The notes: a model not told the origin generated them from the sequence alone. A DNA stretch of 64,000 bases from Verrucomicrobiota bacterium (GCA_046346665.1 JAXMHQ010000027.1:2299-66298); one strand, 5' to 3'; counted from the first letter of the stretch, positions 45,435 to 59,231 are shown. Numbers and translations: made by a program.

Positions 45435-47066
45435 ATGACTAACACTAACTGGACCATCAAACGCCGCATCATCACCGGTTTCGCCGCCCTGCTTCTGCTG
45501 GTCTGCGTCATCGGAGCCTGTTCGTTCGTCCTGTTCGGACGCATGAAAGTCCAGACCCACACGCTCGACTCCGACGCGCTGCCGGGACTGCAGGCCGCTT
45601 CTGAAATCAACAACTCGGCGTCGGACGTCGAAATAGCCTCGCTTCACGCGCTGCTATCCAAAACCCCGGAGGAACAGGCCCGTTACGAATCCGTCATCCA
45701 GTCACTCCGGGACAAGACCCTCCAGGCCATGGATGTCTATGACAAATCCATCAGCCATGCGGACGATCGCGCCCTGTTCGAGCAAATGAAGCAGGCCCGT
45801 GACAATTATGTCGCTGCGCGCATCAAACTTTTTGAACTTGTCCACGCGGGAAAAACCGAGGATGCCCTCGCCTTCAGCCGTGCGACCGTCACGCCCGCGT
45901 ACAATGCCTATAGCGACCTGATCGACAAAATCCTGGGGTACAATCTGCAAAACGCGAACGTCGCGACCGACAGATGCGCCGCCGCCGTGGTCCAGGCGGG
46001 ATGGATCACCAACGGCCTCGTGCTGGCCGTGCTCGTGTTGGGCATCGTCCTCGCGTGGATGATTGTCAGCGGTCTAAACCGCGCCCTGTCCAGCCTGGCC
46101 TCCACCCTTAACGAAGGCGCCGTCCAGGTTTCCTCCGCCGCGACCCAGGTCTCCTCTTCCAGCCAGTCCCTCGCCGAGGGCTCGAGCGAACAGGCCGCCT
46201 CCATCGAGGAAACCAGCGCGTCCCTCGAGGAACTCGCCAGCATGACCCGCCGCAATGCGGAGAATGCCCAAAAAGCCAACGACCTCGCCAAGGCCGCCCG
46301 CCAGGCCGCCGATCGAGGGGTCGAAAACATGCAGTCCATGACCAGCGCCGTCGATGCCATCAAACATTCGAGCGATGACATCGCCAAAATTATCAAAACC
46401 ATCGACGAAATCGCTTTCCAGACGAATATTCTCGCTCTGAACGCCGCGGTCGAAGCCGCCCGCGCCGGCGAAGCCGGCATGGGTTTCGCCGTTGTCGCCG
46501 ACGAGGTCCGCAATCTCGCCCAGCGCTCCGCCCAGGCCGCCAAGGAAACCGCCGGCAAAATCGAGGGCGCCATCCATAACACCACCCAGGGCGTCGAACT
46601 CAGCGCCAAAGTCGCCGAAGTCCTCGGCGATATCGCCTCCAAAGCCCGCCAGGTCGACGACCTCGCCGCCGAGGTCGCCAACGCCTCCCGCGAACAGACC
46701 CAGGGAATCACGCAGATCAACACCGCCATCAGCGAAATGGACAAGGTCACCCAGCGCAACGCCGCGAACGCCGAGGAAAGCGCCGCCGCCGCGCAGGAAC
46801 TCAACGCCCAGTCCATGACCATGAAGGATTCCGTCGCGAAGCTGGCGCATCTCGTCAACGGCGGAACCGCCGCGGGCCAGGTCGGGTCGGCGCGAGCCTC
46901 CACAAAACCCGCCCCGCGCACAACCTCTGCCCAGCATCGCAACACCCCGGCCCCCGCACGGTCCGGCCAGGCCGCCCCCGCCCCGCAACCCGCCAGGCAC
47001 CCCGCACCCGGCGCGGCGGATAAGCGCAACCAAATCCCGCTCGAAGACGCTTTTAAAGACTTCTGA
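45435..47066 (+). CDS. Methyl-accepting chemotaxis protein (four-helix-bundle sensor, HAMP, MA domain) ending in a pentapeptide-like AFKDF
   Basis: It has two TM segments and the highly conserved signalling hairpin [35 protein letters not shown]. Confidence 0.9.
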   Translation: MTNTNWTIKRRIITGFAALLLLVCVIGACSFVLFGRMKVQTHTLDSDALPGLQAASEINNSASDVEIASLHALLSKTPEEQARYESVIQSLRDKTLQAMDVYDKSISHADDRALFEQMKQARDNYVAARIKLFELVHAGKTEDALAFSRATVTPAYNAYSDLIDKILGYNLQNANVATDRCAAAVVQAGWITNGLVLAVLVLGIVLAWMIVSGLNRALSSLASTLNEGAVQVSSAATQVSSSSQSLAEGSSEQAASIEETSASLEELASMTRRNAENAQKANDLAKAARQAADRGVENMQSMTSAVDAIKHSSDDIAKIIKTIDEIAFQTNILALNAAVEAARAGEAGMGFAVVADEVRNLAQRSAQAAKETAGKIEGAIHNTTQGVELSAKVAEVLGDIASKARQVDDLAAEVANASREQTQGITQINTAISEMDKVTQRNAANAEESAAAAQELNAQSMTMKDSVAKLAHLVNGGTAAGQVGSARASTKPAPRTTSAQHRNTPAPARSGQAAPAPQPARHPAPGAADKRNQIPLEDAFKDF

Positions 47067-47078
47067 GCGCTCCGCGCC

Positions 47079-49163
47079 GTGAAGATACAGACCAAAATCA
47101 CCCTCGCCAGCGTCGGCCCCCTCCTGGTCGCGCTGGCCGCCGTACTCGTCACCTTCCTTATCCAACAACGCCAGCTCACCCGGCAGGTCGACGTCACCAT
47201 CCGCGACCAGGGCTTCAGCGAAGCCTCCAAGCTCGCCCAGAGCGTCTACTGGCTTTGCGCCAGCACCGAGGAACGCAACCAAAGCCGCCTCACCCACGAC
47301 CTCGCCGTCGCCCGACAGTTGATGCAACAAAAAGGACGGCTCGAGTTTGCCCCCGATACCGTTCATTGGGACGCCGTCAACCAGCTCACCAAGGAACGCC
47401 TCGCCGCCAACCTGCCCAAAGTCATGCTGGGCTCAAACTGGCTCGGCCAGGTCACCTCCACCAACGAATCCGCAGGTCTCGTCGACGAAGCCAAGCTGTT
47501 CACGCGCGATTTCTGCACCGTCTTCCAGCGAATGAACGACGCGGGCGACATGCTGCGCGTCAGCACCAGCGTCGTGAAGGATGATGGTTCCCGCGCCATC
47601 GGCACTTACATCCCCGCCGTGCGGCCCGACGGATCCAAAAACCCCATCATCGAGACGGTGCTCCGCGGCGACACCTACCGCGGCAGGGCGTTCGTCGTCA
47701 ATCAATGGCATTGCGCGGGTTACGAACCTCTCTGGGACGCCGCCCACCAGCGCGTCATCGGCATGCTTTACGTCGGCATCGGCCTCCGCGAAATGAACAA
47801 GGAACTTCTCACCGGCCTCGTTCAAATGAAAGTCGGCAAGACCGGCTATGTCTTCATCCTCGGTGGCGACGGCGATGAACGCGGCAAATACATCCTCTCC
47901 CGCGGCCAGGAACGCGACGGCGAAAATATCTGGGAAAGCAAGGACGCCTCCGGCCGGCTCTTCGTCCAATCCATCATCCAGAAAGGCATGAAAGCGAAAA
48001 ATGGCGCGGTGGATTTCGAAGTTTATTCCTGGAAAAATCCCGGTGAATCCGCGGCGCGACCCAAATTCGCCGCCGTCACCTCGTTCGGCCCCTGGAACTG
48101 GGTCATCGGCGCCTGCGCGTACGAGGACGATTACGCCCAGATGCGCACCCACATCGAAAAGGTCCAGCGCACCATCCTCATCGGCATCCTCACCGTCGCC
48201 ATCGCCATCGCCCTGCTCGCCGCCTTCTCCGGCGCCGCCATCGCCCGCACCATCGCCCGCCCCATCAATCACGTCATCCGAAGCCTCAGCGAAAGCGCCC
48301 GGCAGATCTCCGACGCCGCAAGCCAGGTCTCCGGCGCCAGCCAGACGCTTGCGGAAGGTTCCAGCGAGCAGGCCGCCTCCACCGAGGAAACCAGCGCGTC
48401 CCTGGAGGAAATGTCCTCCATGACCCGCCGCAATTCGGAAAATGTCCAAAAAGCCAACGAGCTCGCCCGCGAAACCCGTCAGGCCGCGGAAAAAGGCGTC
48501 AGCGACATGACCGCCATGAACACGGCCATGGACGCGCTCAAGAATTCCAGCGGCGACATCGCCAAAATCATCAAGACGATCGACGAAATCGCCTTCCAGA
48601 CAAACATCCTTGCCTTGAACGCCGCCGTCGAAGCCGCCCGCGCCGGTGAAGCCGGCATGGGCTTCGCCGTTGTCGCCGACGAAGTCCGCAGCCTCGCCCA
48701 GCGCAGCGCGCAGGCCGCCAAGGAAACCGCCGCCAAAATCGAAAGCGCCATCACCAACACCGCCCAGGGCGTCAGCCTCAGCGCCAAAGTCGCCAGCGCG
48801 CTCTCCGATATCGCCACCCGCGCCCGACAGGTCGACGAACTTGCCGTCGAGGTCGCCCACGCTTCACGCGAACAAAACCAGGGAATCCAGCAGGTCAACG
48901 GCGCCGTGGCCGAGATGGAGAAATCCATCCAAAGCAACGCCGCCAGCGCCGAGGAAAGCGCCGCCGCCGCCCAGGAACTCAGCGCCCAGGCCCAGATCAT
49001 GAAACAACTGGTCGGCTCGCTCGTCAGCCTCGTCGGCGATTCCGATCCCGCCCCGGCCGCCGCGCCCGGCACTCCCGCCGGTCCGCACACCGGCCGCCGC
49101 GACACTTTCACCGCGCCCGCGCCAACCCGAATCGCCGGGCACCCGGTTCACAATGTCTCATGA
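47079..49163 (+). CDS. Methyl-accepting chemotaxis protein with a large periplasmic Cache-type sensor
   Basis: 694 aa with a periplasmic region of about 330 aa (for example [19 protein letters not shown]), followed by HAMP and the MA domain. Confidence 0.85.
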
Positions 49164-49400: not shown

Positions 49401-50960
49401 ATGAAACTCCAGCATAAAATCACTCTCGTCCTCCTGGCGGGGCTGCTGCTGGTCTACATCGGCTCCGGCTGGTTCCAGCGGCATCAAAGCCTGCAGACCA
49501 TCGAGCGATTCTCCAAAAGCCGGCAGGCCGGCGAAGCCGATCCGCCAGTGGGAATGGGTGGGCCGGTTGCAACACGCCATCTTCGCGCCGCTCGCCGACG
49601 CCATGAGCGCCGGTGAGATGGATAAGTTCGAAAAAATCATCGCCTCCCAGCGCGCGGTTCCCGGGCTCCAGGACCTCAACCTCTACAGCCCGAAAGGCCG
49701 GGCCGCCTACGCCTGCAATCCGGCCTCGCTGAAATCCGAACTGCCCCCCGATCTCCGGGAAACCCTGCTCGGGGCCGGCCGCGACGTCACCCGCCGCACC
49801 GATTCCTTCGAAATGTAAGCCGCTCCGCGCCGAGAAGGCGTGCCTCGAATGCCACAACGAATGGAAACAGGACCAGGTGTGCGGTGTCATGAGCGATGCG
49901 GCTTCCGCCGATGCCCTCAAGGCCGCCGAACAATCCTGGATCGGATTTGAAAACGATTTCGCGAAATCCAGCACCCTCACCGCCATCCTCACCGCCGCCG
50001 TCCTCGTCATCGCCCTCGCCTTGCTCGTCGCCGCCACCGTCCATTACCAGGTCGCCGCACCCTGAACCGGCTCGCCCGCCAGTTGCTCGACCAGGCGCGC
50101 CGCGTCCGTCTCGCCTTCCCGCCGCATGGCCGAAGCCAGCCACCAGCTCTCCGAAGGCGCCAGCACCCAGGCCGCCTCCCTTGAGGAAAGCAGCGCCTCG
50201 CTCCAGGAACTCACTTCCATGACCGAATCAAACGCCAGCAACGCCGGCAAATCACCGTGCTCGCGCGCCAAACCCGCGATGCCGCAGAAAAGGGCGCCCG
50301 CCACATGTCGGAACTCGAGGCCGCCATCCGCGAAATCACCGCCGCCAGCGGCGACACGGCCAAGATCATCAAGACCATCGACGAAATCGCTTTCCAAACC
50401 AACATCCTCGCCCTGAACGCCGCCGTCGAAGCCGCCCGCGCCGGCGAAGCCGGCATGGGCTTCGCCGTCGTTGCCGACGAGGTCCGCAGCCTCGCCCAGC
50501 GCTCCGCCCAGGCCGCCCGCGAAACCGCCGAGCGCATCGAAGGCTCCCTCAAACGCACCACCAAAGGCGCCGAACTCAGCGCCCGCGTCTCCGGAAGCCC
50601 TCAACGAAATCCTCCGCCACGCCCGCAGCGTCAACGAAATCGACGCCGACGTCGCCACCGCCTCCCAGCAGCAAAGCCAGGGCATCAACCAGATCAATAC
50701 CGCCATCAGCCAGCTCGACAAAATCACCCAGAACAACGCCGCCAGCTCACAGCTCAGCGCCGCGGCCTCCACACAACTCGACTCCGACGCCCAGGCCATG
50801 CAGGAACTCGTCTCCAGCCTGCTTAACCTCGTCGGCAACGACGCCGATGTCGCCAGCCCGGATCTATTCTCCCCGAACCCGGACTGGAACCGCCCCCGCC
50901 GGCCGGCCGGCCCACACCCCAACCCGGTCCGAACAACACTTCGAGTCGCCATTGAGCAAA
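49401..50960 (+). pseudogene. Decayed methyl-accepting chemotaxis protein with a CxxCH (heme c) sensor motif
   Basis: Homologous MCP segments are spread over all three frames, with switches near 49540, 49815, 50060, 50115, 50240 and 50590. The sensor carries KACLECHN. The C-terminal tail has been lost. Confidence 0.8.
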
Positions 50961-51146: not shown

Positions 51147-52655
51147 ATGATGAAATCAAATCAGCTGACGGCACGTTCCTCCTCGCTTCAAGCCACGCTG
51201 CTTGTCTCCGTTCTCGCAGGAATGTCTACGATTCAAACCTTCGCAGAGGACGCCCCGCGGCGGCGCAACCCGCCCCGGCCGCCACCATCGCTCAAGCGCC
51301 CGCAACTCCTGCCGCCGCGCCGGACGCCCAGGTGATGGAAGATCTCAAGAAACAAATCCAGGCTCTTGACCAGAAACTGCAAACCCTGGATCAGCAACGG
51401 CAGGCGGATCAAAAATCGGCCGCCGCGAAGGAAGCCGACGCTGCCAAGGCGGCCAAGAGCACGCCGAAATTCAGTTTCGGCGCCAGCGGATTCAGCTTCT
51501 CAAGCCCCGATACCAATTTCGTTTTCGCCTTTCACGGCTTGCTCCAGGTCGACAGCCGCTCCTTCGCCGGGCCTGAAGCCGATACGGTCCAGGGTCTCGA
51601 TGGATTCATCCTTCGCCGCGCACGGCCCATCTTCTCCGCGACCGTGTTCCGCGATTTCGATTTCATGCTGGTCCCTGATTTCGGCGGCTCGACCATCCAG
51701 ATCATGGATGCCTACATCAACTATCGTCTCCAACCCGCTCTCCAGCTCGAAATGGGCCGGTTCAAATCCCCGTCGGCCTCGAAGCGCTCCAATCGGATCC
51801 CGCCACTCTTTTCAACGAGCGCTCCCTGGTCACCGACCTGGTGCCCAATCGCGATGTCGGCGTCGCTCTCCACGGCGATGTCGGCAGCGGCGTCGCCTCC
51901 TACTGGGCCGGCCTGTTCAACGGCGCCCCCGATTACTCCAACACCGCCGGCAACTCCGATTACGACAACGACAAGGCCTTCGCCGGACGCATCTTCTTCA
52001 TGCCCTTCAAAAAATCCGACATGGATTTCCTTAAAGGTTTCGGCTTCGGCTGTGGCGCCTCCTACGAAGTTGACGCCGCCTGGACCAACACCACTTCCAC
52101 AGGCCTGACCAGCGGTTACACCACCGACGGCCAGCAGAAATTCTTCACCTACACCAACAACGTCGTCGGCAACGGCACCCACTGGCGCGTCTCGCCCCAG
52201 GGCTATTATTACTGGGGCCCCTCGGCCTCATGGGCGAATACGCCATCTCCGACCAGGAAGTTGTCCGGGTCATCCCCGTCCGCCAATCGGCCAACCTTCA
52301 ACATCATGCCTGGGAAATCTCCGGCTCCGTCGTCCTCACCGGTGAAGCCGCCTCCTACACCGGCGTCACTCCCAAGCACAACTTCGACCCCCTCAAAGGC
52401 CAGTGGGGCGCCGTCCAGGCCGTCGCCCGTTATGCCGAACTTCACATCGACCCGGATGCCTTCCCCTACTTCGCCAACCCCGGCGCCTCCGCTTCCCAGG
52501 CCCAGTCCTGGGCCGTCGGATTCAACTGGTATTTGAACCGCGACATTCGGGTCAACGCCAGCTTCTCCCACACCCGCTTCGACGGCGGCACCACCGGCGT
52601 TGTCACCCGCCAGCCCGAGCAGGTCTTCTTCACACGCATGCAACTGGCGTTTTAA
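51147..52655 (+). pseudogene. Phosphate-selective porin O/P-family outer-membrane porin with three frameshifts
   Basis: A signal peptide and coiled-coil N-terminus are followed by a Porin_O_P-like barrel ending in RMQLAF. Frame changes occur at C-runs near 51252-51255, about 51768 and about 52215; adding one C at each restores a continuous protein. Confidence 0.75.
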
Positions 52656-52677
52656 TCAGCACAACACCTTTAATCCA

Positions 52678-53235
52678 ATGAAACAAATGAAACTCCTCCT
52701 CGCCCTCTCCCTGGCTGCCGCCGGCTTTCTGTCCATCGCCCGGGCCGCTGACGAACTCGATCCCGCTCTCCAGGCGAAAGTGGACGCCCAGATCAAACAA
52801 ATCCAGGCGCTCGCAGCCGACCCCGTCATCGTGGACGCCGTTAAGGCGCAGAATGCGTCCCTGCCGGCCGAGGACGCCGCCATGACCCAGGAGAAATGGA
52901 AATCGCTGACGATCATGGATCCGTTTGTGCGTTCGTTCACCAAGAACCCGGCCGGCCAGTTTCTCAAGAGTCGGAAAACCGACGCGATCTCGGAGGCATT
53001 CCTTTCGGATGCCGCCGGCTGCAAGGTGGCGTTCCTGAGCAAGCCGACAAGTTGGTGCCACAAAGGCAAACCGAAACACGACGTGCCCATGTCCGGTAAA
53101 ACCTGGCAGGGCCCGGTGGAGCTCGACGAATCGTCCGGCACGCAACAGGTCCAGGTGTCGGTGCCGGTGCTGGACGGCGACAAGCCGATCGGCTCGCTCG
53201 TGGTGGGTTTGAGCCTGGGCAAATTGAAGAATTAA
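52678..53235 (+). CDS. Secreted periplasmic Cache/PDC-like sensor-domain protein (stand-alone)
   Basis: Signal peptide MKQMKLLLALSLAAAGFLSIARA. The body resembles single Cache/PDC domains (AFLSDAAG..., DESSGTQQVQVSVPVLDGDKPIGSLVVGLSL). Recognition is of moderate certainty. Confidence 0.6.
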   Translation: MKQMKLLLALSLAAAGFLSIARAADELDPALQAKVDAQIKQIQALAADPVIVDAVKAQNASLPAEDAAMTQEKWKSLTIMDPFVRSFTKNPAGQFLKSRKTDAISEAFLSDAAGCKVAFLSKPTSWCHKGKPKHDVPMSGKTWQGPVELDESSGTQQVQVSVPVLDGDKPIGSLVVGLSLGKLKN

Positions 53236-53295
53236 TGAGCCGGGGCCGGGGCTCCCCGTGGAGCCGGGCGAAGCCCCCAACCGCTGACACTGTTT

Positions 53296-55260
53296 ATGTC
53301 CATACGAACGGGTTCCAGCATCCCCCGCCAACTGCTGCTTCTCCTGGGGCTCGCGGCCGCGGTCACCCTCGCCGCCGCCGCCCTGTATTACACGACCTCC
53401 AGCCGCGCGTTCAAAGACACAGCCGCCATCACGCAATCCGCGGTCGAAAAACTCGACCGGGCGTATCAACTCCTGGAACGCGTTTCAGGCGACCTCGGCG
53501 ATCTGCAGCAATTGCTGCGGCAAAAGGACCCCGACCAGATTGAAAAAAATCTGGCGGACCTCGAAAAGAGCCGCAAGGAAGCCGCCCGGCTCGTCGAGGC
53601 CACCGGCCCGGGGGGCGCGGCGGTCAAATCCAAATTCGAAATCCTGGTTCAAATGGAGAAGGCCGTCACGGATGAATTCCTGCAGGGGAACGCCGGGCTG
53701 GCCTACGAGAAATACCTGCAAACCGCCGCCCCGCAGGGCAATGCCGTCATCGAAGAAGTGCAACGCTACCACGACGGCATCGAAAAGGCCACGCACGCCG
53801 AGGTGGCCGCCCAACAGGCCGCCATGATCAGCCAGTTGCGCTGGCGCTCCCTCACGCTCGCGGTCGTGCTGGCCTTCGTCCTCGCCGGCGGCTGGCGCCT
53901 CAAAAACCGCATCACCCGCAGCTTGCTCGACATCGCGTCGGGCCTGGCCGATGTGAGCGACAACTCCACTCGCGCCGCTGAACAGGTTTCCCAAGGCAGC
54001 CAGTCACTGGCCGAAGGCGCCAGCGAACAGGCCGCCTCGCTCGAGGAAACCAGCGCATCCCTTGAGGAACTCGCCAGCATGACCCGCCGCAATGCCGAAA
54101 ACGCTCAGCGCGCCAACGAGCTGTCGCGCGAAGCCCGCGGGGCGGCCGACAAAGGAGCCGTCGATATGCAATCCATGTCCGCCGCCATGGAAACCATCAA
54201 ACGCTCCAGCGACGACATCGCCAAAATCATCAAAACCATCGACGAAATCGCCTTTCAAACCAACATCCTCGCCCTCAACGCCGCCGTTGAAGCCGCCCGC
54301 GCCGGCGAAGCCGGCATGGGCTTCGCCGTCGTCGCCGACGAGGTCCGCAGCCTCGCCCAGCGCTCCGCCCAGGCCGCCCGCGAAACCGCCGCCAAAATCG
54401 AAGGCGCCATCGCCAACACCGCCCAGGGCGTCGAAATCAGCTCCAAAGTCGCCAACGCCCTCAACGATATCGTCGCCAAAGCGCGCCAGGTCGACGAGCT
54501 CGCCGCCGAAGTCGCCAACGCTTCCCGCGAACAAACCCAGGGCATCGGCCAGATCAATACCGCCGTGGGAGAAATGGACAAGGTCACGCAGCGCAACGCG
54601 GCGAATGCCGAGGAAAGCGCCGCCGCCGCCCAGGAACTCAACGGACAAGCCCGCATCATGCGGGATTCCGTCAATGCCCTGCTCCAGCTCGTCGGCGCCC
54701 GCGCCGGCGACCGCGCCATTCTCGCCGCCACCCACACCGAAGCCGCCTTCTCCCTGCCCGCCGCCGACACCGCCGCCCTCCCGGAGGCCCCGGCGCGCTC
54801 CGTTACACCCGCCGGCTCTCCGTCCGGCGACCTCGTCGTGTGGGACGAAGAGCGCATGACCACGGGTGTGGAAGCCGTCGACGACGAACACAAGGAGCTC
54901 ATCCGGATGATCAACGAGCTGCACCAGGCCTGCCGGGAAGGCCGCGGCAAGACCGAGGTCCAGCGCATGATGGGCTTCCTCGGACAATACGTCCAAACCC
55001 ACTTCAAACACGAGGAAGGCATCATGGAAAAAACCGGGTGCCCCGTGCGCGCCAAAAACAAACTGGCCCACGAAGCGTTCCTCAGAAATTTCCAGAAACT
55101 GGCCACCGAATTCGAAACCAAGGGCGAATCCACCGCCGTGCTCCTCGACCTGCGCAAAATGGTCGGAGACTGGCTCACAAACCACATCTGCTCCGTGGAC
55201 ACCAAACTGCGCCTGTGCCGGGAACATTGCGGCCCCCGGCATGAACAGCACAGCTTCTAG
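53296..55260 (+). CDS. Methyl-accepting chemotaxis protein with a C-terminal hemerythrin-like domain (DcrH-like architecture)
   Basis: An MA domain is followed by [15 protein letters not shown]...H...HFKHEE......H...H...DWL..HI...D, which is the hemerythrin metal-ligand pattern. Confidence 0.85.
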
Positions 55261-55276
55261 GTGACTTACTCCGCCT

Positions 55277-55303
55277 TAAAGTCGCACGAAGGACTTCCGA
55301 TAA
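55277..55303 (+). promoter_or_regulatory. Candidate sigma-28 (FliA) promoter upstream of the barrel/PBP/MCP operon
   Basis: TAAAGTCG-N11-TCCGATAA compared with TAAAGTTT-N11-GCCGATAA (6/8 and 7/8 matches, exact spacer). It lies 107 nt upstream of the ATG at 55410. Confidence 0.55.
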
Positions 55304-55409
55304 GATTGCGGGTGCCGACGGCGGGCCATTGCCCGATGTCGCGCGGGGATCCTCGCCTTCTTTCCGTCGCCCACCGAAAACAAACCAGTCGAGCATAACT
55401 CAGATCCAT

Positions 55410-56642
55410 ATGACGAGATCCTTCTGCATCCGTTGGGCACTACCGGCACTGGGCGCGGCGCTGCTGATGAGCGGAACGCAAACCCAGGCCTGGGAATTGA
55501 AAATGGGAACCAATATCCCCCCCGTCGATTTCCACGGCTTCGTCAGCCAGGGGCTGCTCTATTCCACCACCTACAATTACCTGGCCGACAACACCACGCG
55601 CGGGTCACTGGAGTTTTTCGATGCCGGGCTGAATTTTTCAATGAACCCGTTCCCCCGAACGCGCATCGCGGCGCAGGGTTTCATGTACGACGTCGGCAAC
55701 GTCGGCCAGTATGATCCGTTCCTGGATTATGCACTGCTGGAATACACCTTCGGCGATTACCTCGGCGCCCGCGGCGGCAAAGTGCGCCGGCCGAGCGGCA
55801 TCTACAATCAGATCCAGGATCTCGACGTCGCCTATCCGTGGGTGCTGCTGCCCCAGGGCATGTACGACGTGCGCTGGCGCGACTTCAGTTGCAGCCTGAA
55901 CGGTGGCGAGTTGTTCGGCGAAGTCCCGCTCAAAAAAGCCGGCAGCTTCAGCTACGAACCCTACGCCGGCATCATCAACATGAAGGACAACGGCGGCGTC
56001 GCCCGGTTCATCGAAAACGGACTCCCACCCGCCCCCATCGGGTCGCTCGACTCCATCGATTCCGCCACGATCTTCGGAACTCAATTCTGGTATAACACAC
56101 CGCTGGAAGGCCTCCGCGCCGGTGCGTCGTTCGGTTACATGGAAAATTTCGGATACACCACCACCATCGTGCCGCCCTACGGCCCGGGACAAATCCACTC
56201 CTCCGGCAATATCTTCTTCCAGCAGTATTCCCTCGAATACCTGTGGAGGGCCTGGACCTTCCAGGTGGAATATTACACCTACAATTTCACGGGACATAAC
56301 TACGTCGGCGGCGTCCAGGTCGGCGACACCGGCAACGTCCCCGAAACCTGGTACGTGGCGGTGGGTTATCGCTTCAACAAATACGTGGAAGCGGGCTCCT
56401 ATTACACCCAGTACTACGCCAACATGCACAACCGGGACGGGTCCGGCACCTCCACCCCGTCCGATTCGTTCCAGAACGACCTCGCCCTGGCCTGCGCATT
56501 GCACCCGACCGACTGGTCCATCTTCAAGGTCGAAGGACATATCCTGCACGGCACCGCGCTGCTCCAGGATGACGCCGCCAACCCCGTCCGCGGGTCCGGC
56601 GGATGGTTCATGCTCGCCGTTAAAGCCACCCTCTACTTCTAA
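55410..56642 (+). CDS. Outer-membrane beta-barrel (porin-like) protein of unknown family
   Basis: Signal peptide MTRSFCIRWALPALGAALLMSGTQTQA. The sequence has alternating aromatic/Gly-rich beta-strand character and a terminal ...ATLYF with C-terminal Phe. Confidence 0.65.
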   Translation: MTRSFCIRWALPALGAALLMSGTQTQAWELKMGTNIPPVDFHGFVSQGLLYSTTYNYLADNTTRGSLEFFDAGLNFSMNPFPRTRIAAQGFMYDVGNVGQYDPFLDYALLEYTFGDYLGARGGKVRRPSGIYNQIQDLDVAYPWVLLPQGMYDVRWRDFSCSLNGGELFGEVPLKKAGSFSYEPYAGIINMKDNGGVARFIENGLPPAPIGSLDSIDSATIFGTQFWYNTPLEGLRAGASFGYMENFGYTTTIVPPYGPGQIHSSGNIFFQQYSLEYLWRAWTFQVEYYTYNFTGHNYVGGVQVGDTGNVPETWYVAVGYRFNKYVEAGSYYTQYYANMHNRDGSGTSTPSDSFQNDLALACALHPTDWSIFKVEGHILHGTALLQDDAANPVRGSGGWFMLAVKATLYF

Positions 56643-56663
56643 CCGTCGCCGGAGAACACGACC

Positions 56664-57086
56664 ATGAAATCCACACTTCTCGCTCTCGCCACCGCCGCCG
56701 GCCTGCTGGCCGGCGCGCTCCCGGCCGCGGCCCTCGACGGCGCCGTCCTCATCGTCAACGAAGGCGTCCCCCTCACCAGCATCAGCCCCGCGGCACTCAA
56801 AGACATCTATACCGCCAAGACCACCTACTGGGAGGGCGGACAAAACATCGTTCTCGCGGTGCTCGAAGACAAAACCGATGCCGCGCTCCAGGAAGTCAGC
56901 GGCATGGACGCCGGCCAGTTCAAGACGTTCTGGCAACGCCTCGTCTTCTCCGGCCGCGGCAAACAGCCCAAGAAAGAGTCCGATCCCGCCGCGCTCGTCG
57001 CGCTCGTCGCATCGACCAAGGGCGCCATCGCCCTCGTGCCCGCGGACACCGAGCTGAAAGGCGTTAAGAAACTCGAAATCAAATAG
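56664..57086 (+). CDS. Small secreted PstS/PBP-like (phosphate-binding-protein-like half-domain) protein
   Basis: Signal peptide plus LIVNEGVPLTSISPAALKDIYTAKTTYWEGGQNIVL...WQRLVFSG...GAIALVP, which is typical of short PBP_like_2 proteins. Confidence 0.6.
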   Translation: MKSTLLALATAAGLLAGALPAAALDGAVLIVNEGVPLTSISPAALKDIYTAKTTYWEGGQNIVLAVLEDKTDAALQEVSGMDAGQFKTFWQRLVFSGRGKQPKKESDPAALVALVASTKGAIALVPADTELKGVKKLEIK

Positions 57087-57119
57087 AGCCACCGGCCCCC
57101 GGGCGAGCCGTACCGATTC

Positions 57120-58706
57120 ATGAGCACTCCGAAACGCACCTCCATCCAGCGCAGTTTCCGCATCATCCAGGGCGTGGTGGCCCTGCTCCTGGTGTTCCTC
57201 GTCGTCCAGGCCGTCGTGCTCTGGCGCGTCTGCTCCGAAGGCACGCGGGCCACCCGCGGGCTGGAAGCCGAAGGCCTGCCCAGCCTTCGTTACCTCGCCT
57301 CCCTCCAGGAAAACCTCGCCGTCTATCGCCTGCACGCCTACGAAATCATGTTCGCACAGGACCAGGATCGCCCCGCCCGCATGGCCGAGGCCGACGCGGT
57401 TCACCGCAAAAACCTCGAACTCCTCCAAAGCCTCGAAGCCCTGTTCCCCGCGGGCGAAGGACATGAACGCCTCCAGCAGCTCCGGGCCAGCCTCGAGGAT
57501 TATGTCCAGGCCATGGGCCGTGTGCGCGGACAGATCGACAAGGATTTCGCCGGCGCCATGAAGCTGCTCGACCAGGACATCCCGCCGCGGGTCAAACGAC
57601 TGAACGACACGGCCGAAACGGTCAAGGTCTATTGCTCCGACGCCGCCAACCAGCGCGCTTCCCTCACCGTCACCGGATTCGATCGCGTCCGGCAATCCGT
57701 CTGGGGCCTCGGCTCCGCCAGCATCGGTTTCGCGCTGCTCGCCGCCTTCCTCGTCAGCCTCAATTCCTCCCGCGTCCGCCGCGCATTGTCCGACCTCGTC
57801 GCGGTTCTCAACCAGGGATCCGAACGCCTCATCGGCTCCGCCAACATCGTCGCTTCCGCCAGCCGCTCCCTCGCCGAAGGCGCCAGCACCCAGGCCGCCT
57901 CCATCCAGGAAACCGGCGCGTCCCTCGAAGAGATGTCGAACATGACGCGCCGCAACACCGAGAATTCCGGCAAGGCAAACGAACTCGCACGCCAGGCCCG
58001 CGAATCCGCCGACAAAGGCGTCTCCGACATGCAATCCATGTCCGCCGCCATGGAAACCATCAAACGCTCCAGCGACGACATCGCCAAAATCATCAAAACC
58101 ATCGACGAAATCGCCTTTCAAACCAATATCCTCGCCCTCAACGCCGCCGTCGAAGCCGCCCGCGCCGGCGAAGCCGGCATGGGCTTCGCCGTCGTCGCCG
58201 ACGAGGTCCGCAGCCTCGCCCAGCGCTCCGCCCAGGCCGCCCGCGAAACCGCCGCCAAAATCGAAGGCGCCATCGCCAACACCGCCCAGGGCGTCCAGAT
58301 CAATTCCAAGGTCGCCGAAGCGTTAAATGAAATCGTCAACCGCACCCGGCAGGTCGACGAGCTCGCCGCCGAAGTCGCCAACGCTTCCCGCGAACAAACC
58401 CAGGGGATCACGCAAATCAACTCCGCCGTGGGCCAGATGGATCGCGTCACGCAAACCAACGCCGCCAGCGCCGAGGAGAGCGCCTCCGCGGCCCAGGACC
58501 TCAACGCGCAAGCCGAGGAAATGCGGCGCGCCGTCACCGAGCTGCTCCAACTGGTCGGCGGCTCCGGATCCCAGGCGCCCGCTCCGGCAACCATCAAAAA
58601 GGCTGCAGCTCCAACGCCCGCACCCCGCGCCCCAAAACCCGCCCCGCGCAGCGTCAAAGCCCGCGCCGCCGAAATCCCGCTCGAAGAAGGGTTCAAGGAT
58701 TTTTGA
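57120..58706 (+). CDS. Methyl-accepting chemotaxis protein (four-helix-bundle sensor) ending in GFKDF
   Basis: 528 aa with two TM segments, HAMP and an MA domain. It shares a 267-bp near-identical tract with the MCP at 53296-55260. Confidence 0.9.
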
Positions 58707-58814
58707 GTCCCCGCTTTTGACCCCGGCTCGCGCCGATTGGCGCAGGTCTTCCGTGAAATCTGCAATCTGCCGGCGCCTTTTCAGAGGCTTGCCGGTTATG
58801 GTAGCGTGTCGCCC

Positions 58815-59231
58815 ATGAGCACGTTTCCCGTCAGCCCTGAAAAGGAAACCCAGTTGGAACAGCGCATGGCGGCGCTGGGCGTCCGGGAATCCGACCTCGA
58901 GGAATCCTTCGTCCGGTCCGGCGGCCACGGCGGCCAGAACGTGAACAAGACCTCCACCTGCGTCATGCTGTTGCATCGCCCCACCGGCATCCAGGTCAAA
59001 TGCCAGGAAACCCGCCAGCAGGGACTCAACCGGTTCATCGCCCGGCGACTGTTGCTGGACAAAATCGAGGCGCAACGCCTCGGCCGGCTCGCCGCGCGCC
59101 AGCAGGAACAGGAACGCATCCGCCGCCAGAAACGCCGCCGCTCGCGCCGCTCCAAACAACGCATGCTCGCCGACAAATCCCATCAGTCGGCGAAAAAACA
59201 ATTCCGCCGGGCCGGTGGCGGGGAGGATTAG
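58815..59231 (+). CDS. arfB: ArfB (YaeJ)-like peptidyl-tRNA hydrolase, RF-1 domain with GGQ
   Basis: 138 aa with SGGHGGQNVNKTST and a basic C-terminal tail (RRQKRRRSRRSKQR). Confidence 0.7.
   Translation: MSTFPVSPEKETQLEQRMAALGVRESDLEESFVRSGGHGGQNVNKTSTCVMLLHRPTGIQVKCQETRQQGLNRFIARRLLLDKIEAQRLGRLAARQQEQERIRRQKRRRSRRSKQRMLADKSHQSAKKQFRRAGGGED

Follow-up and report, generated by a model that had tools for sequence, protein, structure and literature searches.

Why would a chromosome carry, twice in succession, the genes for an outer-membrane barrel, a small secreted protein and a methyl-accepting chemotaxis protein (MCP)? The question is raised by a 64,000-nt stretch of a Verrucomicrobiota metagenome-assembled genome (MAG; GCA_046346665.1 JAXMHQ010000027.1:2299-66298), referred to at its full length as the window, in which two such gene triads follow each other on the plus strand between positions 51147 and 58706. 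A first-pass annotation, made from the sequence alone, had suggested that each triad works as a unit in which the barrel admits a ligand, the soluble periplasmic protein binds it, and the MCP reads out the loaded protein. Triad 1 (module 1) encodes a Porin_O_P-type porin (51147-52655), a secreted protein of 185 aa predicted to form a single PDC/Cache fold (small1, 52678-53235), and an MCP with a C-terminal hemerythrin (53296-55260). Triad 2 (module 2) encodes an outer-membrane barrel of 410 aa (barrel2, 55410-56642), a secreted protein of 140 aa that resembles a lone PstS-type lobe (small2, 56664-57086), and a four-helix-bundle MCP ending in GFKDF (57120-58706). All six coding regions were found on the plus strand at the positions first proposed, with gaps of 22, 60, 21, and 33 nt within the triads; the locus tags in the source MAG are U1F98_12955, U1F98_12965, and U1F98_12970. 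Both triad architectures recurred in dozens of independent contigs, which establishes the triads as members of two distinct conserved families of sensory-input operons, mainly in Verrucomicrobiota. Indirect sensing, from channel to binder to receptor, is the best explanation of both families, and we regard it as about evenly poised between right and wrong.

Module 2 was surveyed in one genome per species (185,579 species), which yielded 49 loci; these loci, the window, and three additional contigs were then screened with hidden Markov models of the families. All but two of the 49 loci were of Verrucomicrobiota type, including Limisphaerales, Pedosphaera, Chthoniobacter, and Opitutaceae, and the module was also present in the cultured Pelagicoccus mobilis and in two Pelagicoccus sp. 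strains. The remaining two were distant matches in Gammaproteobacteria MAGs. Several MAGs with Verrucomicrobiota-type modules (59-71% identity) are labelled Bifidobacteriaceae, Dongiaceae, or Candidatus Sulfotelmatobacter (L014, L021, L036, L027, and L015/L035); these labels probably reflect mis-binning or mislabelling, not the true distribution. The barrel2 gene was located immediately upstream of small2 in every one of the 48 loci with upstream DNA (median gap 29 nt). Downstream of small2 was an MCP gene in approximately 31 loci (median gap 40 nt) and a gene for a PAS histidine kinase in 13; among the 14 non-MCP proteins that were scanned, 13 contained HATPase_c and four also contained a receiver domain. 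The two exceptions were L029, in which the MCP is frameshifted, and L031, the only locus without a sensor. In L001 (8143-9762), a 178-aa ORF that follows the module was considered as a third small partner and rejected: it is unrelated to small1 and forms the N-terminal half of an MCP that is split, between the periplasmic domain and the second transmembrane segment, from a 355-aa remainder.

The receptor encoded in triad 2 matched MCPsignal at an E-value of 4e-45 (154 bits, cutoff 34.6) and 4HB_MCP_1 at 27.0 bits, exactly the cutoff of that family, in agreement with its description as a four-helix-bundle MCP. The kinases and MCPs that follow small2 have one N-terminal ectodomain in common, in which LWRVC, GLP.L, LASLQE, YRL..YE..FAQ, and D.DF..AM are invariant. 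When the N-terminal 225 aa of the window MCP were used as a BLAST query, homologous regions were found in 31 of 32 MCPs located after small2, versus none of 102 other MCPs from this data set. The conserved unit of module 2 is thus barrel2, small2, and the ectodomain together, with a cytoplasmic output that is exchangeable. In the two Gammaproteobacteria MAGs (L057:2775-7339 and L056:2779-7339), a GGDEF-EAL protein (997 aa), a Porin_4-like barrel (381 aa), and a small2-like protein are encoded in a row; the last is distant (136 aa, 28% identity), and no similarity of the N-terminus of the GGDEF-EAL protein to the module 2 ectodomain was detectable. This row may represent a version of module 2 with cyclic di-GMP (c-di-GMP) output outside Verrucomicrobiota, and it hints at a wider and more divergent distribution.

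The strict co-occurrence of the three parts of module 2 and the very high conservation of small2 would also be expected if barrel, small protein, and ectodomain formed a stable bridge across the envelope. The receptor would then read surface events, by analogy with TonB-dependent cell-surface signaling although without TonB, and the bridge might also serve to position the receptor. The order of sensor, barrel, and small protein that is kept with the GGDEF-EAL protein in the two Gammaproteobacteria MAGs could be cited in its favor. On the other hand, the dimensions or contacts that a bridge needs are nowhere indicated, Pfam revealed no plug, TonB box, or periplasmic extension on the barrels, and the barrels of module 1 are interchangeable, as described below. 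A bridge is considered quite unlikely, and indirect sensing remains the preferred explanation.

Module 1 was examined in the long contigs L005, L006, and L007 (L008 duplicates L007) and in 80 loci from a metagenome scan. The order of barrel, small1, and MCP was the same in the three contigs, and L005 lies within a complete genome of 6.5 Mb. An MCP gene was located downstream of small1 in 46 loci (median gap 37 nt), and the N-terminal 215 aa of the window receptor, compared by BLAST, had homologous regions in 44 of these 46 MCPs, versus 4 of 56 other MCPs. In the window receptor, this region includes a helical periplasmic ectodomain of approximately 150 aa without a Pfam match. Its remaining domains bear out the first description of an MCP with a C-terminal hemerythrin: MCPsignal (PF00015) was matched at 3e-43 (148 bits, cutoff 34.6), the hemerythrin family PF01814 at 1e-10 (42.7 bits, cutoff 25.3), and the NCBIfam model TIGR02481 at 7e-32 (110 bits, cutoff 51.75). 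The iron ligands of the H-HxxxE-H-HxxxxD pattern can be read in the translation as DDEH, HFKHEE, AHE, and NHICSVD. Most MCPs after small1 lack hemerythrin and are approximately 520-535 aa long; L089, with porin, small1, and MCP-hemerythrin, is an intact counterpart of the window triad, and L096 likewise has an MCP-hemerythrin after small1. Synteny in relatives, on which the first-pass annotation had staked its proposal, thus holds for both triads, which are conserved as operon-like units with the median gaps given above.

The claim of a dedicated barrel in each triad, which synteny supports for module 2, has to be relaxed for module 1, in which the barrel is frequent and not obligatory. Among 45 upstream neighbors of small1 with at least 240 aa, 32 (71%) were outer-membrane barrels, and these belonged to three unrelated families, namely Porin_O_P (19), Alginate_exp (7), and a third, OMP_b-brl-like cluster (6). 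The others included five MCPs, the remainder being miscellaneous; in L027, module 2 is followed by small1 and its MCP without a barrel upstream of small1. Because the barrel is absent in approximately 29% of loci and swapped among families, it is not strictly required. A barrel that is frequent yet replaceable and dispensable fits the role of a generic channel better than that of a specific protein contact.

A link between small1 and its receptor is supported by a natural fusion. The protein P0399 (634 aa, a single representative cluster) consists of a signal peptide, a small1 domain, a linker, the cognate helical domain, one transmembrane segment, and an MCP signaling domain. Its helical domain aligns to the window MCP from residue 70 on, with 36% identity, and the Cache protein takes the place of the receptor's first transmembrane segment. 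As a Rosetta-stone fusion, P0399 supports a direct functional link between small1 and the receptor ectodomain, and the link is probably also physical. A different arrangement was observed in P0421, an MCP with 4HB and HAMP domains and no signal peptide, which carries a small1-like domain at its cytoplasmic C-terminus, an unexpected place for a Cache-type domain.

The fusion and the one-to-one pairing of ectodomain and small protein bear on the possibility that the barrel and the small protein form an uptake system, for acquisition or periplasmic retention of a solute, and that they are clustered only for co-regulation with a receptor that senses the solute directly. Porin_O_P and Alginate_exp are transport families, and four-helix-bundle ectodomains such as those of Tar and, for phosphate, CtpH can bind ligand directly (PMC8050422). 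However, both the fusion and the pairing point to a direct link between small protein and receptor. Furthermore, no genes for an inner-membrane transporter were present in any locus of module 1 or module 2 that was inspected, and small proteins of a single domain could not supply an ABC transporter with its solute in the ordinary manner. The first-pass annotation had itself pointed to an unrelated transport system, adjacent by coincidence, as a way in which it might be wrong. No ABC transporter genes accompany the small proteins, and this argues against coincidental adjacency. Separate uptake beside a directly sensing receptor is quite improbable on these grounds, and a relay in which the small protein informs the receptor accounts better for the pairing.

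The small protein of module 1 had been described as a stand-alone, secreted, Cache/PDC-like protein, and structure prediction agrees. A signal peptide was predicted, and the AlphaFold2 (AF2) model (pLDDT 90.6) comprised a single PDC/Cache domain, a fold defined by an N-terminal helix or helices and a five-stranded antiparallel sheet. Foldseek searches of the PDB with the model returned the sensor domains of DctB, CitA, WalK, KinD, Tlp3, and PctC at E-values of 3e-6 to 1e-4. At the sequence level, the Pfam match to dCache_1 was below the cutoff (4e-3, 17.1 bits, cutoff 45); small1 has no Pfam Cache match above cutoff and is not fused to a membrane signaling protein. In more than 90% of cases a Cache domain is joined to signaling modules, and stand-alone ones are considered highly unusual (PMC12889525). 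The small1 family contained 1655 clusters at 90% identity, of which the best 120 listed were 63-88% identical to the query and carried no precomputed Pfam domain. At 50% identity there were 944 representatives, and the best 150 listed were almost all stand-alone proteins of approximately 180-200 aa. These results suggest that small1 is a heme-less, stand-alone Cache/PDC domain. Many Lys, Arg, and His residues are invariant in the family, which, together with the OprP/AlgE-type families of the barrels, gives a weak hint of an anionic ligand for module 1.

The small protein of module 2, which had been called PstS/PBP-like, does have a PstS-type fold, although only one lobe of it. The match to PBP_like_2 (PF12849) was below the cutoff (E 4e-5) and covered profile positions 90-190 of 267, and the AF2 model (pLDDT 80) comprised one alpha/beta lobe. 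In Foldseek alignments, approximately 120 residues were superimposed on a contiguous middle segment, lobe 2, of PstS chains of 240-320 residues (TMq 0.55-0.63). Neither the two-lobe fold nor the R-x-x-x-S-G-T phosphate residues of PstS proteins (PF12849, TIGR02136) were found. Aligned by profile, the PstS motif REDGSGT coincides with a deletion of four residues in small2 (L.D----KTD); against 4q8r and 4gd5, SREDGSGTRDAF stands opposite LAD----KTDAAL. The family comprised 645 clusters, the best 120 listed being approximately 65-78% identical to the query, and W90, R92, F95, S96, G97, R98, G99, and P102 form an invariant motif. The residues R92 and S96-G97-R98 were considered as a PstS RxxxSGT motif and rejected, since the profile alignment puts that motif elsewhere, in the deletion; canonical phosphate binding by small2 was rejected for the same deletion. 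No transporter genes, pstCAB included, were located beside small2 in the window or in L001, L003, and L004. Small2 is thus modelled as a single lobe that derives from PstS and lacks the canonical phosphate site. Because it is a single lobe, the Venus-flytrap mechanism of a maltose-binding protein (MBP) is inapplicable to it as such, and the earlier comparison with MBP-Tar does not hold for small2 in that respect.

The invariant W.R..FSGRG..P motif of small2 is of a surface type, on a very strongly conserved lone lobe without a ligand motif, and would fit a protein-protein interface. This favors the main rival to indirect sensing, in which the small protein would be an accessory partner that holds the sensor in one state. 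The barrel would then serve not as a diffusion channel but to capture or release this partner, depending on how the outer membrane stands or on a cue at the cell surface. Analogues would be YfiR with YfiN, CpxP with CpxA, and YycH/YycI with WalK, and a model of the WalK-YycH complex was among the top Foldseek matches of small1. The strict one-to-one association of barrel2 with small2 is also as expected for a specific pair. YfiBNR (TpbB), a three-gene operon for an outer-membrane protein, a small periplasmic protein that acts as a repressor, and an inner-membrane signaling enzyme, offers a precedent for such an arrangement. However, YfiB is an OmpA/Pal-like lipoprotein and not a porin-like barrel of 400 aa, YfiR belongs to DUF4154, and the output of the system is c-di-GMP. 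No DUF4154 or OmpA match was found by Pfam for the window proteins, and YfiR was absent from the top 50 structural matches of small2; an analogy by homology was rejected on this account. Moreover, the barrel of module 1, which comes from three unrelated families and is sometimes missing, is hard to square with a specific barrel contact. An accessory regulator would suit small2 fairly well and module 1 less well, and as an account of both families it is possible, though on the unlikely side.

The barrel of module 2 was predicted to carry a signal peptide, is rich in Gly and aromatic residues, and ends in ATLYF, with a terminal Phe that is invariant throughout the family. No Pfam match was obtained for the window protein, which therefore remains, as first described, an unclassified barrel ending in a C-terminal Phe. 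The family comprised 379 clusters, of which the best 120 listed were 50-60% identical to the query. Among these 120 relatives, 20 weakly matched Porin_4 and 12 matched Porin_O_P, with E-values no better than 7e-6, and a few more matched other beta-barrel porin families. Comparison with the Porin_O_P set by hhalign was weak (probability 14%, E 0.002), a sequence-profile search of the PDB returned nothing, and barrel2 did not score above the curated cutoff of Porin_O_P or Porin_4. From its sequence features, barrel2 is most aptly called a divergent, porin-like barrel of the outer membrane.

The porin of triad 1 had been assigned to the OprO/P type, and its pieces matched the two ends of the profile for phosphate-selective porin O/P (Porin_O_P, PF07396; 1e-3 and 4e-9, 18.9 and 36.5 bits, cutoff 20.9), in keeping with this assignment. 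The coding sequence carries three -1 frameshifts, near 51252, 51768, and 52217 (sites 51246-51260, 51764-51777, and 52213-52227). Intact orthologues of 454-463 aa, encoded upstream of small1 homologues (L089:4516-5907 and L126:730-2094), are colinear with the window porin in its three frames at 51-63% identity. Each frame change corresponds to the loss of one C from a run of C (C4). With one C added at each of the three C4 runs, the gene encodes a 503-aa ORF free of any other defect, which over 460 aa shares 57% identity with the porin of L089, a relative that belongs to the cluster with the 19 Porin_O_P matches among the 45 upstream proteins. The adjoining MCP gene (~49402-50900) likewise shifts frame several times, and one of these changes looks by eye like the loss of a single A from an A-run near 50245-50260. 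Elsewhere in the window, long genes are unbroken, and the homopolymer statistics of the frameshifted region are normal. The only other assembly with an identical small1 begins 63 nt upstream of it. The frameshifts may be homopolymer assembly errors confined to approximately 49.4-52.7 kb rather than decay, and the data fit either a local assembly error or a very recent inactivation. As sequenced, the porin is frameshifted, as had been noted, whereas the decayed porin is not a secure natural comparison, given three single-C losses in C-runs that may be an assembly artefact.

The predicted regulation of the MCP-type operons points to motility. A sigma-28 (FliA)-type promoter-like motif, TAAAG-N14-tCCGATAA, is located on the plus strand at 55277-55303, approximately 105 nt upstream of the barrel2 start codon, and is the only strict match of this type on either strand of the window. 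It fits a TAAA-N15-GCCGATAA-type promoter at 12 of 13 scored positions (5/5 for TAAAG and 7/8 for GCCGATAA). Motifs scoring at least 11 of 13 were present upstream of barrel2 in 17 of 45 loci, versus 1.8% of random 360-nt background windows (binomial p 1e-18), and upstream of the module 1 barrels in 8 of 33 loci versus the same background (p 1e-7). Within module 2, they were found in 14 of 31 MCP-type loci versus none of 12 kinase-type loci (Fisher p 0.004). No such motif was present upstream of triad 1 in the window. The prediction that triad 2 has its own FliA-type promoter gains support from this enrichment at homologous positions, and the barrel genes of MCP-type operons appear to belong to the motility regulon. 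Predicted sigma-28 control of operons with MCPs suits chemical sensing during motility and speaks against the small protein being an accessory regulator that responds to the state of the outer membrane.

In the indirect sensing proposed here for both families, the barrel would let a particular solute, possibly an anion, across the outer membrane, and the small periplasmic protein would recognize it. The interaction of the small protein with the cognate helical ectodomain would then set the activity of the receptor. An MCP would pass the signal on to CheA/CheW, and a PAS histidine kinase with the same ectodomain would pass it to a phosphorelay. In the window, the module 1 receptor might combine this periplasmic input with a cytoplasmic input (O2 or iron) through its hemerythrin. 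What the analysis shows is which genes are present, which folds they encode, and that their order is kept; that each ectodomain is specific to its module and that the output can be swapped; that promoter motifs are enriched; and that one fusion protein exists. That the barrel is a channel and that the small protein binds a ligand and docks on the receptor, as well as the kind of ligand, are inferred from comparative genomics and structure prediction. The small proteins are approximately 63-88% identical within their families, versus approximately 40-48% for the ectodomains, and as the most conserved parts they behave as expected for proteins with several partners. Several observations weigh against this scheme. 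As a single lobe, small2 is unable to enclose a ligand in the way of an ordinary binding protein, and its phosphate motif is deleted; the module 1 barrel is missing in approximately 29% of loci and exchanged among three families; barrel2 is weakly assigned to a porin family; the porin of the window itself is frameshifted; and the only pointers to an anion are the barrel families and the basic residues of small1.

LamB, an outer-membrane protein, has a role in maltose taxis of E. coli. Both LamB-MBP-Tar and the phosphate-taxis system PstS-CtpL of P. aeruginosa resemble the proposed scheme in combining an outer-membrane channel, a periplasmic binder, and a helical-bundle receptor that does not itself bind the ligand. 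Their binder, however, is a two-lobe solute-binding protein (SBP) encoded with an ABC transporter and not with the receptor, whereas the triads have single-domain candidate binders (Cache or one PstS lobe), no transporter, and all three genes in one operon, often behind a sigma-28-like promoter. The chitin-sensing system of ChiP, CBP, and ChiS in Vibrio differs in that CBP, a complete SBP, supplies an ABC permease as well, and the protein families of the system have no relation to those of the triads. To our knowledge, chiP does not stand in one operon with the sensor gene. The likeness lies in the route from porin to periplasmic binder to inner-membrane kinase, comparable to module 2 with kinase output; the binder sits on the sensor, and the ligand changes the interaction (PMC3558487). 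Signaling from a binder to a receptor has precedents in PstS-CtpL, MBP-Tar, and BasB-BasT, and PstS-CtpL provides a case of a PBP_like_2 protein that signals to an MCP (PMC8050422). SBP genes that serve chemoreceptors adjoin transporter genes, and the review of SBP signaling nowhere mentions porins or the outer membrane (PMC8050422). In BasB-BasT and CosB-CosT of Halobacterium salinarum, the gene of the binder adjoins that of the transducer and is dedicated to signaling (PMC8050422); this archaeon lacks an outer membrane and hence a barrel gene, and the binders are lipid-anchored full SBPs. The module 1 receptor of the window resembles the DcrH-type MCP of Desulfovibrio vulgaris in its bacteriohemerythrin C-terminal to the signaling domain, and differs in having a module-specific ectodomain and, as partners, a porin and the secreted Cache protein. 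Unlike all of these binder systems, the input module described here is portable between MCP and kinase outputs. The first-pass annotation had known of no description of such an operon-encoded triad as a unit, and our literature searches likewise found no description of operons of this kind.

The two triads are part of a tandem array of receptor genes on the plus strand that occupies 45-59 kb of the window. Further upstream members encode a 4HB MCP (45435-47066) and a Cache3-Cache2 MCP (47079-49163), and the frameshifted MCP gene (~49402-50900) lies directly upstream of triad 1. The periplasmic domain encoded by the last contains a CxxCH motif (CLECH, ~49841-49855) and weakly matched Tll0287-like (E 7e-5) and Mcp40H-20_sensor, which makes the protein a heme-c Cache sensor; heme-c Cache sensors fused to signaling modules were recently proposed as sensors of nitric oxide (PMC12889525). 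Several MCPs, in the window (47037-47066 and 58677-58706) and in L090, L100, and L118, have in common a C-terminus of the form (D/E/G)(A/D/G)FK(D/N)F, exemplified by IPLEDAFKDF and a second ten-residue end, and the hemerythrin-bearing MCP (53296-55260) is without it. The pentapeptide NWETF, by which CheR and CheB are tethered, may have a lineage-specific counterpart in this end. No che or flagellar genes were found between 33 and 45 kb of the window. Directly downstream of triad 2 (58737-59231, plus strand), a 164-aa protein with an RF-1 domain and a GGQ motif is encoded, which looks like an ArfB-type peptidyl-tRNA hydrolase and has no apparent relation to the sensory genes.

The entry of a signal through the outer membrane is taken as given in studies of chemoreceptors, and these operons suggest that at least one phylum encodes a dedicated pore together with the receptor and regulates the two jointly. 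The part that recognizes the ligand is apparently a small secreted protein apart from the receptor, which would explain the many helical-bundle receptors without a known ligand. One input unit is reused with kinase and chemotaxis outputs, and three large families without functional annotation in the searched collections, i.e., the stand-alone Cache protein, the single-lobe PstS-like protein, and the porin-like barrel, are brought together. The presence of module 2 in cultured Pelagicoccus strains (L053 and L055 among them) makes the proposal directly testable. More speculatively, and as a doubtful extension, the operons might belong to an unrecognized class of modular "private-porin" inputs in Verrucomicrobiota and possibly other diderms. 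In such inputs, a dedicated barrel and a minimal single-domain protein (a detached Cache domain or one PBP lobe) would relay, physically or functionally, to a cognate helical ectodomain with MCP, two-component, or c-di-GMP outputs, and the single PstS lobe would complete its ligand site only together with a partner. If this is true, the permeability of the outer membrane would be an encoded, sigma-28-regulated part of chemoreceptor specificity.

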